A stretch of 20,000 nucleotides of DNA, from positions 53,767-73,766 of the forward strand of contig JALDZX010000078.1 in NCBI GenBank assembly GCA_022813865.1, given 5' to 3'. The notes below the pieces were generated by a model. It was not told where the DNA came from and did no database searches. It saw only the letters and a list, made by a program, of their open reading frames with translations. Made by a program: the position numbers and the translations under genes. Position 1 is the stretch's first letter. Each line of letters begins with the position of its first letter. Of the stretch, positions 2,301 through 10,029 are shown piece after piece. This DNA is from Xylographa opegraphella. Lineage: Eukaryota.

Positions 2301-4072
2301 CTATCCTATTCGATATGGTTCAGCGCCCTTGCCAAAAATAAGATGTGGCTTGCGAGCAGCCACGTCTAGCACTGTTTGTGCAAACACAGAATTAGCCCAG
2401 GCAAACCAACTCCCTGCTTGATATCAGCAATTTGTCATAGTTAAAGGAATCCCGACCACCTACGAGTATAGTCTGCAACTCTTTCGACATTGATGCTTTC
2501 GTGTATCAAGCCCAATTTGCTAGTCTTCAACACAGCCTCGAGACTGTCTAATATCTCTTCGTCATCATCACTAGTCATCGCCTGAACGAGCCTGCTCATG
2601 GGCCAAGCGTGCTGAAGTCCAATATGGGGACCTCCAATCGCGCTAAAGCCTTTCCCTGTCAGGTAATACGGATTACCTGACTTCTCAAGTATCATTTTCC
2701 GCGTATTTTGGTAAATTTTGTCAGAGACATCAACAAAGCCTAGGAGCGGCAAGGCCAGAAGTGACGGCAGATTAGCGTCATCCATCAGTATTTGCGAGCC
2801 GTACCCATCCACTTCGAAAGCAAACACCTCGCCGTAGTGCTTGTGCCTGACAACACCGTGCTCCCAAACCCCCTTCTCAATACTCGAGGCGCGGGCTAGG
2901 AGTACGTTGCGAAGTTCTACCTTGCCGGCTGATCCGACAACTTCGGCCGTGCGCTTGAGCTCTACGGCCATCATGGCGTTCGCAGGAATGAAAAACCCCA
3001 ATATGGTGGCATCGTCGCTGGGCCGGAAAGCGCTCCGAACGAGCCCTGTGCGACCATTGAGAGGATTACCGACTCCACCAAGGGCCAGTGTTTCACTGCT
3101 CACCGTAGTAACCCTCTGAAAAGTGTACTCGTTGATTTCAAACTTCCCTGTTGTTTCGTTGAACGTCGACTTCGACTGTTCATCTAGAACTACTAGTAGC
3201 GTTTCCAGGGCTGTATACCAGCGATTCGTCAGAAACGCTGTAGACTTTGTTGTGGCATAGAACTGGTTTCCGAGGGTTAAGAAATGAGCCAAAGAGTCTA
3301 GCTCATATTTGCATTCGAAAACTTGGGTCGATTCAAAAGCTGGGTGGACAGTATCGTGCTGACCGTTGCCAGTTGGTGGTATATTACTTGGTGGAGGTGG
3401 TTGAAATGCATTGCAATACGGCGACTCAATCACATATTCAGCTTGTGTATTGATCGCCCCTAGGATCAAAGCCTCAATCTTTTTGTCTTTCGGTGCCAAT
3501 GCTTGATATTGCGCCAACTGGTTGGTAGAGTCCCGTAACCATTCAGCATTGATATCTCCGGTCACAATAAAGCTCTGGGGTCCTTCCCAAACGCCGTTGC
3601 TACTCCCACCCACGTAGAGCTTAGCCTTGGTCTTCTTTTGCGTTCCATCAACATGCCATCGGACGGTGGTATCGAGCGTGTTCGGGAATGCATTCTCGAA
3701 TAGTCGGGCAAGGTCCTTATCCTCCATACGAGATGTGATATCCTCGATGACTTTCTCGACCAGAGGCGATGTAAATGTACGACAGGGTAGTGAAGGTCTT
3801 TGGTATGGTAAGGCCAATGGTCCTTCGCTCAACGGACGACTACCAGTGTTCAGCGGTTTCTTGAGACTCGCCAACGAGCATACTTACTGAGGAAAGACGG
3901 CGTAGTGCTGATAATCAGGACATGCTGCTCTGTATCTCGCACCATCCAGGTCAGACTCGAGAACATTCTGGCCCCCACCTGCTCTTGTGTCTTCGCCTGG
4001 CACTGCCATTGTCATAAGAAAGGCGCACGTCAAGCTCAGGAGTCGAGCGGCGAAACCCGGAGAAGCCATCAT
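2301..4072 (-). CDS. Glycoside hydrolase family 125 (DUF1237 / Mug157-like; metal-independent alpha-mannosidase fold) with signal peptide; exons 4072-3888, 3839-2464, 2413-2301 (557 aa)
   Basis: Motifs LFENAFPNTLDTT, TGDINAEWLRDS, ECKYELDSL, RSAFRPSDDA, MDDANLPSLL, IGGPH, WPMS and IHES, plus spliced YTRSWFAWANS. Introns are 3887-3840 (GTAAGT..TAG) and 2463-2414 (GTAGGT..GCTGAT..CAG). The N-terminus is hydrophobic (LLSLTCAFLMTMA). Confidence 0.9.
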
Positions 4073-4880
4073 ACAACTATCGATCAAGATGAAGGCTTGC
4101 TACGCAATGAACTTTCGCCGGGTAGACTACACGTATAGACGTGAATCCCGTGTGCTAGGACAATTGCTGCTTTCCGTAGCAGCCAAGCCCCACAGCATCA
4201 CATAGGTCCAAGGTCAATATGTCGTGGGCAGCATTTTGAAGCTCTGCATGTAGCGGGAAGTATCCCTTCTGCAAACCATAGCCGCTGCTATTGATGCAAT
4301 TGCACCCTTGATTATGGCTACAGAGAAATACCGCTCTTAAAGTTTGCGTCTGTAGAGTAGTCTAGAGCAAGGTAATTGCCGTAGAGTAGTCTAGCTGATG
4401 ATTCAGGCGGCGGCACGCGGCGGCAGGCGGCGGGTGAGTCAGCCTTGCCGCGGAAGACAAGTGACCACCCCGGTCAAGCCAATCCTCGATTGCATCAGAC
4501 AGTGTCAAATCTCTTCCTCGCCCAGCGCCTTCTCTCTTTTTTGCTGCAAACTTCCGCATCTGGTTCAAGGGGAAGCTTCTTGCACCAACCCTCTCTCTGT
4601 CATCTCTTACTGTAAGGGAAGCTTCGAGGTGTCACCAACGAGCTATAAGTGAAATCACGGGCACATGCACACAACTAATCTTTCTGCTCAGAGCATCTGA
4701 TCCGCATAGCGTGCTTTTCGGCCTGCAGCCTCCATAACCACCAGCAATAGCCTTCGGCTCGCAGAAGTGCGAGCAAGTCGATAGTCACCCGTCATTCACT
4801 CCCACGCAGACACTCCGGAGGTGGACAAAGTGGGCAAGCGGAAGACCTCCAGTGAAGATTTGCGCCCACACAAGAAGATC

Positions 4881-7800
4881 ATGACGGTTAGTGCCTTTAT
4901 TTATGATGCACGAGATGGCTCATGAATCATTCGGCTCGGACTTCTGCTGCTTGGCTATTGGAATAAGACAACCCGACAATCTGTCAGAAAAATACCTTAC
5001 CGTCGCGCTCTACTTGCTTTGCAATCAGCGGAGTCTTGCGTCTTCATCTCATAACCCTACTAATTTTTGCTAATAGGACAGCAAAATGGATGTCGATGTC
5101 CCTGCACCCGAGCGGGCACAGGACACCACCAACGCTGAGATAGATGAATCTCTCTACAGCAGACAGCTTTATGTACTTGGCCACGAAGCCATGAAGCGGA
5201 TGGGGTCTTCGCACGTCTTGATAGCTGGCATGCGGGGTCTCGGCATTGAAATAGGTGATGAGTACTGTATTGATTCCTCCTCGGACTGTGTCTGACCGTA
5301 TTACCTTCTAGCCAAGAACATCGCTCTTGCTGGTGTCAAATCTCTTACGTTGTTTGATCCTGCGCCTGCCGCCATGTCCGATCTCTCCTCCCAATTCTTC
5401 CTCCATTTAGACGACATCGGAAAACCAAGAGCACAGGTCACTGCCCCTCGAGTATCTGAATTAAATGCCTATACTCCTGTCTCAGTACACCATTCAGAGA
5501 GTCTTACTTCAGACCTTGATCAACTCCGGCGATATCAGGTTATCGTGCTTACTGACACGGGCCTGAAAGACCAGCTCATCATTTCCGATTACTGCCACCA
5601 GAATGGAATCTTCCTGATTATCACAGATATTTATGGTTTATTTGGATATATTTTCACGGACTTTGGTGACAAATTTCCCTGCGTGGACCCGACTGGCGAA
5701 AGTCCGTTAAGCGGAATTGTTGCGGACATCGACTCTGACGGACTTGTGTCTGCGCTGGATGAGACAAGACATGGTCTTGAGGACGGAGATTACGTTACGT
5801 TCACGGAGGTCGAAGGAATGGAAGGATTGAATAACGCGGAGCCGCGTAAGGTTGAGGTTAAGGGCCCTTATACGTTCTCAATCGGAGATGTGTCCGGATT
5901 GGGACAGTATAAGAAAGGCGGCCTGTTCACGCAGGCCAAGATGCCTAAAGTAATCAACTTCAAGTCGTTCACCGATCAGTTTGAAAACCCAGAATTCATG
6001 ATCTCCGACTTCGCCAAGTTCGATCGGCCTCAACAGCTTCACATTGGTATTCAAGCTTTACATGACTTTGTAGGAAGGCATGAAGGTCAATTACCGCGGG
6101 CACACAATGATGAAGACGCTGTGGAAGTATTCGAAGTGGCCCAGTCCATTGCAGCGAAAGGAAAGCAACCAGTTGAGCTTGATAGAAAGATTATCCAGGA
6201 ACTGAGTTACCAGGCTCGAGGAGACCTCAGTCCGATGGCTGCATTCTTTGGTGGACTCGCTGCGCAAGAAGTCCTCAAGTCTGTTTCGGGGAAATTTCAC
6301 CCAGTGGTACAATGGCTGTACTATGATTCGCTTGAATCGCTACCATCCTCTACACAACGATCCGAGGAGCTCTGCAAGCCCCTGAATAGTCGATACGATG
6401 GACAAATCGCCGTCTTTGGTCGAGAATTCCAGGAAAAGATCTCAAACACACAAGAATTTCTTGTCGGAGCGGGTGCTATCGGATGCGAGATGTTGAAGAA
6501 CTGGGCAATGATAGGACTGGCAAGTGGTCCCAATGGCAAGATCAGCGTTGCAGACATGGATACCATAGAAAAAAGCAACCTCAACAGGCAATTCTTGTTC
6601 AGGACCAAAGACGTTGGCAGAATGAAGAGTGATGCAGCAACAGAAGCAGTAGAGGCCATGAATCCGGATCTAAAAGGAAAGATTGTCACCCTGAAGGACC
6701 GAGTTGGACCGGAGACTGAACACATCTTCAATGAAAGTTTCTGGGAAGGACTCGATGGAGTTACCAACGCTTTGGACAACGTAGAAGCCCGACAATATGT
6801 TGACCGCCGGTGTGTCTTCTTTAGAAAACCACTGTTGGAGAGTGGAACTCTCGGCACTAAGGGAAACACACAAGTCGTCCTTCCAAATTTGACGGAATCG
6901 TACAGTAGTTCTCAAGATCCTCCAGAGCTATCTTTCCCACAGTGTACATTGAAGAGTTTCCCTAACAAGATCGAGCATACCATTGCCTGGGCTAAAGAGA
7001 AGTTCCATGGCTACTTTGTCGGCCCCCCGGAGATTGTCAACCTCTACTTGACAAAGCCTAACTACATTCAAGAAACCTTGAAACAATCGGGTAATGAGAT
7101 AGGAACACTTGAGACTCTACGAGATTACCTGGTCACTGAGAAGCCTCTGAATTTTGACGACTGTATAATATGGGCAAGGAACATGTTTGAAAAGGAATAC
7201 AACAACGCTATTCAGCAGCTTTTGTTCAATTTCCCGAAGGACTCGACCACATCCAGTGGGGCCGCTTTCTGGTCAGGCCCCAAACGTGCTCCAAATCCGC
7301 TTAAATTCAACGTCAATAACCCTACACACCTAAGTTACGTGGTTTCCGCAGCCAATTTACATGCATTCAATTATGGTATCAAGAGCGGAAGCGTTCCTGA
7401 GAGTCACTATAAGAAGGTGATGAGTAATATGATAATACCGGAATTCAACCCGGATCCCAAGGTCAAGATACAGGCAGACGACAACGAGCCTGATCCAAAT
7501 GCTCGACCTGAAGGATCATCCTTTGATGATAACGATGAGCTGCAGAAGATCCAGGATCAATTACCACCACCGAAATCCCTGCCTGGCTTTAAACTTGAAC
7601 CTGTAGAATTTGAGAAAGATGACGATACAAACTACCACATCGATTTCATCACTGCCGCCAGTAACCTGAGAGCAGAGAATTATGCCATAGCCACAGCTGA
7701 TCGACACAAGACCAAATTCATCGCTGGCAAGATTATTCCAGCCATTGCCACTACAACTGCACTCGTAACAGGCTTGGTGATATTAGAACTTTACAAGATA

Positions 7801-8302
7801 ATCGATGGTAAGACAGATATTGAGCAGTACAAAAACGGCTTTATCAACCTCGCTCTACCCTTCTTTGGTTTCGGTGAGCCAATGCCCAGTCCAAAGGGTG
7901 AATATATTGGCAAGAACGGCAAAGTCACAATCGACAAGCTATGGGACCGATTCGAAGTGGAGAACGTGACTCTGACTGAGTTCTTGAACGACTTTAAGGA
8001 GAAGGGACTTGATGTTACTATGATCAGCTCGGGCGTTAGTCTGTTATACGCAAGCTTCTATCCCCCAAAGAAGAATGCGGATAGATTGGGGTTGAAGTAA
8101 GTGCATCCACGGGATCATTCTACACCCGATAGCGATGATCTCATACTAATAGTTGCATTGCAGGCTCGATCAACTGGTAGAGACTATCAGCAAGAAACCC
8201 ATTCCATCGCATCAGAAGAACGTGATTTTCGAGATCACGGCTGAGGATCAAACAGAGGAGGATGTGGAGATTCCATACGTGATGGTCAAGTTGAGGAAGT
8301 AG
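4881..8302 (+). CDS. UBA1: Ubiquitin-activating enzyme E1; exons 4881-4886, 5077-5254, 5312-8096, 8164-8302 (1035 aa from the AUG; possible 17-aa GTG-initiated extension from 4830)
   Basis: Motifs [41 protein letters not shown], catalytic Cys in [36 protein letters not shown] and C-terminal EDVEIPYV. Introns are 4887-5076, 5255-5311 and 8097-8163. The spliced length of 3108 nt is in frame. Confidence 0.98.
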
Positions 8303-8784: not shown

Positions 8785-10029
8785 TCACTTCTTCCCGCCG
8801 ACCGCGGCCTTCACCGCCTCCACTTCCTCATTCTCCGGTAGAATATCGGGCAACGGTCCGACGGGCGTAATACTCGGCGGGTTGATCTGCGTGTGGCTCC
8901 GGGTGTAATGCCGCTTGATATGCTCAAACTGCGTGGTGTCGTGGAATGCCGGTACGTTCCAATATAGATGACGCACCCACCTGTGTAATGCGGGGAAGCC
9001 GCTACGGATGTCACGAATGTTGCATTTGAAGTGTTGCACGTACACGGGGTCGAAGCGAATGATGGTGGTGAAGAGGCGGATGTCGGCTTCAGTGACGGTG
9101 TTGCCAAAGTAATAAGGGTGGGATTGGGAGGCGAGGTGGGATTCGGCGCGCGCGAGGGAGGCGAAGAGCGGGGCGATGGCAGATTCATACGCTTCTTGCG
9201 TGCTGTGGGAGACAGAGGGATGTTAGTGGTGTGTCAGGTGTTCGGATGGATAGGCATATGGAGATAGGCACGTACGAAGCGAAACCGGTTTTGTAGACGC
9301 CGTTGTTGATGTCGTTGTATGTCCAATCATTGGTGCTCTCGATTTCCTCCTGCAGGTGTTGCGGAAAGAGATCGACCTTCTTGTATTCCTCTGACAGGAT
9401 GTCGTCGAATTCGTTGTAGAACATGCGGATGATTTCGCTGGACTCGTTGCTCACGATCTTCTTCTGCTTGATGTCGTAGAGTGTCGGTACGGTAAAGCGA
9501 CCTTCATACTCCGGGTCGACTGCGAAATAGATGTCGCGTAGGTGCGTGTAGTCTGGATGAATGGGGTCGGGGCCCACGTACTCGCCTGGCAGCTTTTCAT
9601 CGGTGGTGGCAAAGCGCCAGCCTGGCGGGTTGTAAGAATAGTAGACCTGGTAGAGAGAAGAGCGGAGGGACAACACCCTTGTCTTGCATATGCCAATGGA
9701 CAGAAGTGTAGGGAATTATCTCCTCGAGACCTTTCAGCTTTCGGGCGATGAGGGTACGGTGTGCTGGCAAAAATCTTTCAGTCCTTTTCAATGCGCTGCA
9801 TCTTATCGTCGAAGACTTACCCCAAGGACATGCATAAGAGACATATAAGTGATATCTCCCTTTCTCAGGAGGAAATTCGGCGCCGGACTTCTTGGATATG
9901 AAGTGCCGGAAGGCAGATTGGCCGCGCTTGAACTCCCCAGTCTTGGAGTCCGCCCAAGCCGTAATTTTCTGTTTCCCAGTCAGTGTTTGCAGTATTGATG
10001 ATTCCTGTACGCACGGAAGATCCGGACAT
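8785..10029 (-). CDS. ECM4: Glutathionyl-hydroquinone reductase-type (Xi/omega-like) glutathione transferase, Ecm4/YqjG family; exons 10029-10015, 9968-9821, 9763-9677, 9621-9276, 9202-8785 (337 aa; 373 aa from upstream AUG 10137)
   Basis: Motifs GEFKR, GRYHLYVSYACPWAHRTLI (catalytic CPWA), RFTVPTLYD, IVSNESSEIIRM, INNGVYKTGFA, TEADIRLFTTIIRFDPVY and HIKRHY..SH.QINP. Four GT-AG introns restore one 1014-nt frame. Confidence 0.93.

Follow-up and report, generated by a model that had tools for sequence, protein, structure and literature searches.

The ubiquitin-activating enzyme E1, Uba1, stands at the top of almost all ubiquitylation, and loss of its cytoplasmic form causes VEXAS syndrome. To our knowledge, mammals are the only group in which it is known how Uba1 is shared between nucleus and cytoplasm, and there the sharing relies on two AUG start codons. 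The human forms UBA1a and UBA1b are the same enzyme; the long form carries a short basic N-terminus and the short form starts before the motif IDE(S/G)LYSRQ. According to the accessible text of PMC4013028, the mainly nuclear Uba1A is made from the first ATG and the cytoplasmic Uba1B from the one at Met41; for its nuclear localization, Uba1A requires its first 11 residues. For fungi, the accessible parts of three reports describe near-cognate start codons in other genes, namely in cpc-1 of Pezizomycotina (Ivanov et al. 2017, PMC5487733), in 6-phosphogluconate dehydrogenase (Kremp et al. 2020, PMC7214817) and in tRNA synthetases of Cryptococcus (Wallace et al. 2020, PMC7049704). Here we analyzed a stretch of 20,000 nucleotides (nt) from the lichen-forming fungus Xylographa opegraphella (GenBank assembly GCA_022813865.1, contig JALDZX010000078.1, positions 53,767 to 73,766 of the forward strand), referred to as the window and numbered from its own first letter, which contains the UBA1 gene. 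Judged from its conservation in relatives, a non-AUG-initiated N-terminal extension of Uba1 encoded in the leader of this gene is very probably translated.

The window gene encodes a ubiquitin-activating enzyme E1 (Uba1) with the full domain set. ThiF, E1_FCCH, E1_4HB, UBA_E1_SCCH and E1_UFD were all found in its product by Pfam above the curated cut-offs, and the large exon is 100% identical to the public protein model P0002 of Xylographa opegraphella (1030 amino acids). The first AUG of the mRNA, here called AUG1, forms together with a Thr codon the end of exon 1 (4881..4886, + strand, as all UBA1 features given below). Upstream of AUG1 the UBA1 frame is closed by an in-frame TAG (4782..4784) and is open from 4785 to 4880 without an in-frame ATG; the only ATGs within 4300-4883 lie at 4314, 4398, 4665 and 4881. 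Because of this TAG, no extension can be initiated at an AUG further upstream, unless a splice acceptor downstream of the TAG is used. The open stretch holds a GTG (4830..4832) in the context gacAAAGTGG (-3 A, +4 G), which is the ortholog of the conserved near-cognate start described below. It is followed by the extension GKRKTSSEDLRPHKKI (4833..4880) with KRK (4836-4844), serines (4848-4853), ED (4854-4859), a proline (4866-4868) and KK (4872-4877), the KR at 4836-4841 and the KK at 4872-4877 being ten residues apart. Further upstream, an ATT (4794..4796; G at -3, C at +4) is a candidate AUU start of the longest proteoform. The segment between this ATT and the GTG reads HSHADTPEVDK (4797..4829) and includes another GTG at 4821. 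The initial annotation of this region, which had proposed a bipartite nuclear localization signal (NLS) on an extension started at GTG 4830, had read the open frame, the context of this codon, GTG 4821, ATT 4794 and KR-x10-KK in the same way, and we can confirm this reading.

A likely 5' untranslated region (5' UTR) intron is predicted from the sequence at 4613-4692 (GTAAGG ... CTAAT ... CAG, 80 nt) and is preceded by CT-rich blocks (4510-4612) of a kind typical of fungal start regions. As this intron would hold the sole ATG (4665) of the stretch 4399-4880, the spliced leader would be free of AUG over about 400 nt.

Related loci were obtained by scanning metagenome contigs with an alignment of the N-terminus encoded by exon 2. 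The best 80 of 450 confirmed stretches (568 pattern matches) were used, each with up to 2.5 kb of upstream sequence. The named proteins nearest to these loci are from Lecanoromycetes, Dothideomycetes and Eurotiomycetes (Chaetothyriales, 77-87%); on the Dothideomycetes side, the loci are close to Alternaria (96-99.7% protein identity) and Aureobasidium (94-99.7%) or are Teratosphaeriaceae-like. A hidden Markov model (HMM) of the extension, built from 19 leaders that read the peptide contiguously, matched 77 of the 81 upstream regions, that is, of the 80 loci plus the window. With L075, in which the peptide lies 1.1 kb upstream behind a long intron, the extension is found in 78 of 81. Among the other misses, the upstream sequence available is only 71 nt for L008 and 190 nt for L039, and L080 gave no match. 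The in-frame peptide of the 78 leaders has the form K-L/V-G-KRK-x-S-acidic...P-x-KK-x-M-T. From 46 aligned extensions the consensus x-x-K-L-G-K-R-K-x-S-x-E...K-K-x-M-T was derived, in which K, R and M, the latter being encoded by AUG1, are invariant and the second K is nearly so. When the distinct peptides were counted, 41 of 45 contained KR-x9-13-[KR][KR], and 37 of 45 had a serine after the first basic cluster, followed by acidic residues. Apart from a lineage with an ATG at the position of the GTG, an upstream in-frame ATG was found only in L025, 78 codons away.

The codon aligned with GTG 4830 was then compared in 64 distinct leaders. It is CTG in 44 of them, TTG in four, GTG in four (the window, L052, L055 and L057), ATG in six and another codon in the remaining six. 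NTG is present at this position in 58 of the 64 leaders and NTG or ACG in 59, the ACG of L061 again having A at -3 and G at +4. These two context bases are found with every one of the non-AUG NTG codons (52/52). The codons CTC, CTT, CTA and TTA do not occur at the aligned position in any leader, though they make up 59% of the Leu codons in the same genes, of which CTG accounts for just 24%. The Lys codon flanking the NTG varies freely (AAA 18, AAG 19), as does the following Gly codon (GGG, GGT or GGC), and synonymous sites are therefore not frozen. Where ATG stands at the aligned position, its context is weak (CAC ATG A), which is what leaky scanning would require, and the proteins P0135, P0148 and P0151 are annotated as MTKR... 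forms starting at this AUG. Annotated AUG-initiated versions of the extension also exist in some Dothideomycetes, namely in Recurvomyces mirabilis (P0132), Meristemomyces frigidus (P0139) and Teratosphaeriaceae sp. (P0143), where the models begin at an AUG about 20 codons further upstream and read through ...KLGKRRLSGEE.... The restriction to start-capable codons, the optimal context and the presence of AUG in some lineages together form the recognized signature of a conserved non-AUG start; the conservation of start codons in cpc-1 was argued by the same reasoning in the portion of PMC5487733 available. The GTG at 4830, which the initial annotation had put forward as a candidate, aligns with this near-invariant CTG/TTG/GTG/ATG codon in optimal context.

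The lineage with ATG at the aligned position is Dothideomycetes-like and comprises the leaders L004, L007, L009, L011, L014, L015, L016 and L019 as well as the proteins P0135, P0148 and P0151. Its peptide reads M-T-K-R-P/Q-L-S-E-A-E-A...KK-x-M-T, and several of its leaders have an in-frame stop three codons upstream. It represents a natural swap of the near-cognate codon for AUG.

Conservation by codon position was assessed in a nucleotide-only alignment of 33 leaders. Between NTG and AUG1 the mean column entropy at codon positions 1, 2 and 3 was 0.72, 0.62 and 1.40, between ATT and NTG 1.11, 0.98 and 1.49, and upstream of ATT 1.12, 1.42 and 1.30. Third codon positions of the extension are about twice as variable as first and second ones. 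In L032, L034/35, L062/65/66/76, L078, L049/54 and L072/74, in-frame stops lie 5-15 codons before the CTG with no ATG after them. In each of the 62 distinct loci examined, the 150 nt before AUG1 lack ATG in all frames, compared to 100.5 ATGs expected from shuffling; the control stretch from -450 to -300 contains 139, with 125.6 expected. The distance to the closest ATG further upstream ranges from 165 to 563 nt (median 274 nt, n=55). Three transcript contigs are also at hand. L035 is a spliced transcript of L034 from which an intron (2356-2497) has been removed, and L062 is a spliced copy of L065; both match the genome colinearly over the 150 and 162 nt, respectively, that precede the CTG, without an ATG in this stretch. 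The third, L036, is another ATG-free leader lacking intron 1 and has no exact genomic copy in the set. Given the colinear transcript contigs, these codons are part of the mRNA in relatives, and splicing adds no exon with an AUG. As support from an alignment of relatives, the initial annotation had named a conserved in-frame KRK...KK peptide with synonymous changes and a conserved near-cognate codon, and this is what the 80 related loci display.

The extension may reach further upstream than GTG 4830. An in-frame ATT with a purine at -3 is found 3-15 codons before the NTG in 32 of the 64 leaders, compared to 2 and 3 of 64 in the other two frames, and ATT accounts for just 35% of the Ile codons in these genes. 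In the clade of the window (Lecanoromycetes-like plus Chaetothyriales-like) it is invariant (16/16 leaders), and in the window no other near-cognate codon lies between TAG 4782 and the conserved His-Ala-Asp. Within these 16 leaders the entropy at the three codon positions is 0.77/0.59/1.44 for the eight codons after ATT and 1.51/1.41/1.20 for the seven codons before it. Codon pairs with a single difference after ATT show a ratio of synonymous to nonsynonymous changes of 166:185 in frame and of 85:272 and 57:303 out of frame, corresponding to a synonymous share of 47% versus 24% and 16%. Since ATT is invariant and the coding signature begins right after it, the longest proteoform probably starts at AUU 4794, and GTG 4830 would not be the 5'-most start. 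The window would then have three or four in-frame starts: AUU 4794, GUG 4830, AUG 4881 and AUG 5086. Both ATT 4794 and GTG 4821 had initially been listed as alternative starts. The former is conserved and followed by the coding signature. GTG 4821 was rejected as a conserved start, as GTG is found at this position only in the window, L010 and L028/L030, with GCG elsewhere in the group.

When these observations are taken together, we consider it likely that non-AUG starts in an AUG-free leader add an NLS-like extension to Uba1, leading to a long nuclear and a short cytoplasmic E1. A scanning ribosome would meet AUU 4794 and then GUG 4830 (CUG in most relatives) in the AUG-free UBA1 leader, an arrangement that appears to be shared with many Pezizomycotina. 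A minority of the ribosomes would start at these codons and produce Uba1 with 17 (from GUG) or 29 (from AUU) extra residues before AUG1, and most would scan on to AUG1 (4881) or AUG2 (5086) and produce the short enzyme. The KRK ... KK flanking a Ser-acidic stretch could act as a nuclear import signal of the bipartite type, possibly regulated by phosphorylation. Nuclear E1 would then come from the long form and cytoplasmic E1 from the short one, as with human UBA1a and UBA1b. As far as can be judged from the DNA, multiple in-frame candidate starts and a basic N-terminus on the long form are present, in relatives on the same spliced mRNA; we infer the start use in Xylographa opegraphella, the share of ribosomes and the nuclear function.

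Several points weigh against this explanation. CUG is not universal, as the Chaetothyriales-like leaders L041, L053, L064, L068 and L073 have GCT or GCC instead of NTG; translation of an extension in these five must therefore start elsewhere, probably at the ATT, which is kept in all of them. The window itself has GUG and not CUG, and GUG is a weaker start than CUG. The relatives come from one metagenome scan and were ranked by likeness to Lecanoromycetes; the sampling did not target Sordariomycetes, Eurotiales, yeasts or Basidiomycota as groups of their own, and the class labels, being taken from the nearest of 30 named proteins, are approximate. The HMM selects in-frame peptides by construction, and the conservation of the frame therefore rests on the hit rate of 78/81 and not on an independent test. 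A doubtful but serious alternative is that AUU 4794 is the main start of the long form in this species and that GTG 4830 is an internal Val codon that has drifted from an ancestral CUG. The invariance of ATT in 16 of 16 clade leaders with a coding signature right after it, the in-frame stops found 4-7 codons before ATT in the window, L037, L041 and L064, and the five relatives that dropped NTG yet retain ATT would all fit such a start. However, an NTG flanked by A at -3 and G at +4 is retained in the window, as in all 52 non-AUG NTG leaders, whereas the context of the window's ATT (G at -3, C at +4) is poorer, and AUU is a weaker start than CUG or GUG. Moreover, both starts can coexist, as do the several conserved near-cognate codons of cpc-1 in the part of PMC5487733 at hand.

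What the translated extension does is a separate question. According to the strict classical rule, a bipartite NLS has a linker of 10-12 residues followed by at least three basic residues among five. The bipartite-type layout, two basic clusters with a linker of 10-12 residues, is present in the window; however, KKIMT has two basic residues of five, and just 16 of 49 distinct relatives follow the strict rule, both of which also count against a nuclear signal. Thus, of the bipartite NLS proposed by the initial annotation, the KR-x10-KK spacing and its conserved two-cluster pattern hold, and the strict consensus fails in the window. Because of this conserved pattern and the human precedent, we regard nuclear import, with moderate confidence, as the most likely function of the extension. 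It is unlikely, though well worth considering, that the extension is translated and its motif serves instead as a phospho-regulated interaction or stability motif, or directs the protein to another compartment such as the nucleolus. The departure from the strict consensus in the window and in 33 of the 49 distinct relatives speaks for such a role, and the serine followed by acidic residues is about as conserved (37/45) as the basic residues, which may point to a kinase site. However, it is K and R in the first cluster that are invariant, with the K of the second nearly so, the looser KR-x9-13-[KR][KR] recurs in 41 of 45 peptides, and in humans it is the isoform-specific N-terminus of Uba1A that drives nuclear localization, as stated in the accessible text of PMC4013028. 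A profile of the extension together with the N-terminus, when compared to solved structures, gave chance hits to designed TIM barrels only and none to an E1 chain, which is a weak test. That the conserved stretch is non-coding DNA or a regulatory element of the 5' UTR without any extended protein seems very improbable: a conserved hairpin at 4757-4774 does indicate that non-coding conservation occurs in the leader, but the third-position wobble, the NTG or ACG at one position in 59 of 64 leaders, the ATG there in one lineage, the annotated versions initiated at an upstream AUG in others and the frame kept in 78 of 81 leaders all argue for translation. We give equally little credence to an upstream AUG-bearing exon or alternative promoter that splices into the frame and renders the extension AUG-initiated. 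The plausible 5' UTR intron at 4613-4692 indicates that the leader may be spliced, and the Teloschistaceae models P0034 and P0060 reach upstream ATGs. Yet the TAG at 4782-4784 lies downstream of the acceptor of this intron, no AG is found within 4785-4793, and CAC GCA GAC corresponds to wobbling His-Ala-Asp codons in relatives without a conserved acceptor. In addition, P0034 and P0060 are not alike upstream of TIHSHAD, and the transcripts L035, L062 and L036 are ATG-free before AUG1, the first two being colinear with the genome. Acceptors at TAG 4784 or CAG 4808 were rejected on the grounds of the missing AG in 4785-4793, the wobbling His-Ala-Asp codons and the colinear transcripts of relatives.

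Downstream of AUG1 the gene is interrupted by intron 1 (4887..5076; GTTAGT ... TACTAAT ... AG), which was derived from the sequence. At -3 of AUG1, 62 of 64 leaders have a purine, and in 46 of 64 the exon 1 end formed by AUG1 and the Thr codon has GT immediately behind it. Removal of intron 1 joins ATG ACG in frame to GAC AGC AAA ATG GAT (MTDSK), and the same junction is present in models of Lasallia pustulata (MTDCKMDVD) as well as in L035 and L062, two transcript contigs of other species from which the corresponding intron has been precisely removed (compared to L034 and L065, respectively). Exon 2 (5077..5254) contains AUG2 at 5086-5088, which is the annotated start. It is followed by an intron (5255-5311), exon 3 (5312-8096), a further intron (8097-8163) and exon 4 with the stop codon (8164-8302). 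From AUG2 to the stop the coding sequence comprises 3090 nt or 1030 codons, matching the length of P0002; this public model begins with MDVDVPAPE at ATG 5086 and thus lacks the last 6 coding nt, which belong to exon 1. In the Chaetothyriales-like leaders L041, L053, L064, L068 and L073, the letters CTG persist shifted by one base (GG GCT GGC) and the ATT is kept, as would be expected if a shift of 1 nt had abolished the in-frame start. These five have lost intron 1, and their contigs of up to 624 kb indicate that they are genomic.

The public models of UBA1 conflict on the start. Among the best 120 protein hits, 31 reach the N-terminal motif IDESLYSRQ, and most of them begin at AUG2. Lasallia and one other are the models among these 31 that start at AUG1 (MTD...). 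Three models read further upstream with the peptide of the window, namely Usnochroma P0034 (...TIHSHADIPVGVTPGKRKASNEHARPEKRFMM...), Xanthocarpia P0060 and JGI P0101 (VAKLGKRKASDEHPRQEKKIMTGTSMDID); a search with the region of residues 1-40 of P0101 matched nothing but P0101 itself. Chaetothyriales models begin at AUG1 because intron 1 is absent in this clade. The Aureobasidium pullulans model P0157 begins with MLTLWQDTK, which is the intron of L048 read in frame. The expectation that standard gene callers would miss the extended isoform is borne out by P0002 and many models of relatives, which omit the extension. On either side of UBA1 lie genes on the opposite strand: a GH125 metal-independent alpha-mannosidase (2441-3883, -), whose transcription runs away from UBA1, and a gene (8785-9222, -) whose product has a glutathione S-transferase (GST) C-terminal domain. 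Some public models of relatives fuse UBA1 and GST domains (e.g. P0061, 1416 amino acids), which is probably a merged gene call.

The presumed 5' leader of the window also contains the hairpin GCUCGCA-GAAG-UGCGAGC (4757..4774), which lies 19 nt before ATT 4794. Its minimum free energy is -14.4 kcal/mol (z -2.11), and 4 of 200 shuffled sequences fold as well. A CUUGC/GCAAG hairpin with a loop of 4-7 nt is found 9-25 nt before the ATT in 15 relatives (L001, L010, L012, L018, L022, L028, L052, L055, L026, L037, L041, L053, L064, L068 and L073). In the window hairpin the core is CUCGC/GCGAG; both arms have changed there such that pairing is preserved, and clades differ in their outer pairs. The variable length of the loop argues against a site for a dimeric protein on DNA. 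A hairpin of this type is absent from the ten leaders of other clades that were examined. RNAalifold yielded no consensus structure for 16 leader segments, the MAFFT alignment having put the hairpin arms out of register; the hairpin is therefore supported by folds of single sequences and by arms compared by reading. For a hairpin downstream of the NTG that might boost its use (50 nt from +6), the mean z was -0.72 in 58 leaders and +0.99 in the window, which lends no support to such an element.

If the proposed explanation is true, filamentous fungi, too, make two forms of E1, with a ratio tied to how stringently start codons are chosen. Shifts in this stringency (eIF1/eIF5 balance, stress, eIF2 phosphorylation) would then move ubiquitylation capacity between nucleus and cytoplasm, and 17-29 coding residues would have to be added ahead of AUG1 that are left out of P0002 and many models of relatives. 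More broadly, we tentatively suggest, as one possibility, that UBA1 of Pezizomycotina carries a start series AUU, CUG/GUG/UUG, AUG1 and AUG2 in which the acceptance of near-cognate codons sets nuclear E1, as a fungal counterpart of UBA1a/UBA1b; as a part of this tentative reading, lineages might repeatedly have swapped the near-cognate codon for an AUG in weak context. As the CUG form is present in Alternaria-like (96-99.7%) and Aureobasidium-like (94-99.7%) loci, and thus in culturable relatives, the idea is directly testable.

Conserved near-cognate extensions are reportedly dealt with in a study of start-codon stringency in Neurospora by Wei et al. (J Biol Chem, 2013). In the literature covered, from which supplements and this study were left out, no description of a fungal non-AUG-initiated Uba1 isoform was found. 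In the accessible portions of the reports on related systems, neither ubiquitin nor Uba is mentioned in PMC5487733, nor is UBA1 in PMC7049704. The mechanism as such, a near-cognate-initiated extension that adds a targeting signal, is already known, as is the dual-start E1 of mammals; a fungal non-AUG Uba1 appears to be new, in that we did not find it in print.

With regard to the human enzyme, the fungal extension occupies the position of the N-terminus specific to Uba1A, immediately ahead of IDE-x-LYSRQ. In humans the two forms each start at an AUG, whereas AUU and GUG/CUG are the upstream starts here, and human UBA1a and the fungal extension may be either homologous or convergent. The UBA1 leader resembles that of cpc-1, which is likewise from Pezizomycotina, in the conservation of near-cognate codons that have A at -3 and G at +4, in the open frame and in purifying selection in the main frame. 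The cpc-1 extension, as described in the text of PMC5487733 at hand, comprises about 180 residues and is interwoven with upstream open reading frames, whereas that of UBA1 comprises 17-29 residues with a targeting-like motif in an AUG-free leader. In the Cryptococcus tRNA synthetases, dual localization depends on leaky AUU or ACG starts in strong context, and the exchange of weak AUG and near-cognate codons among fungi that is noted in the accessible part of PMC7049704 resembles the ATG versus CTG of the UBA1 leaders; these are, however, other genes and the compartment is mitochondrial. Like UBA1, fungal 6-phosphogluconate dehydrogenase is a housekeeping enzyme that gains a targeting signal through a non-AUG-initiated extension with an AUU start, in this case a cryptic peroxisomal targeting signal of type 2 (PTS2) in the 5' UTR that is read from AGG AUU, as far as the available text of PMC7214817 goes. 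According to the same text, this signal is peroxisomal and was demonstrated experimentally in Ustilago, whereas that of UBA1 is nuclear-like and predicted from the sequence.

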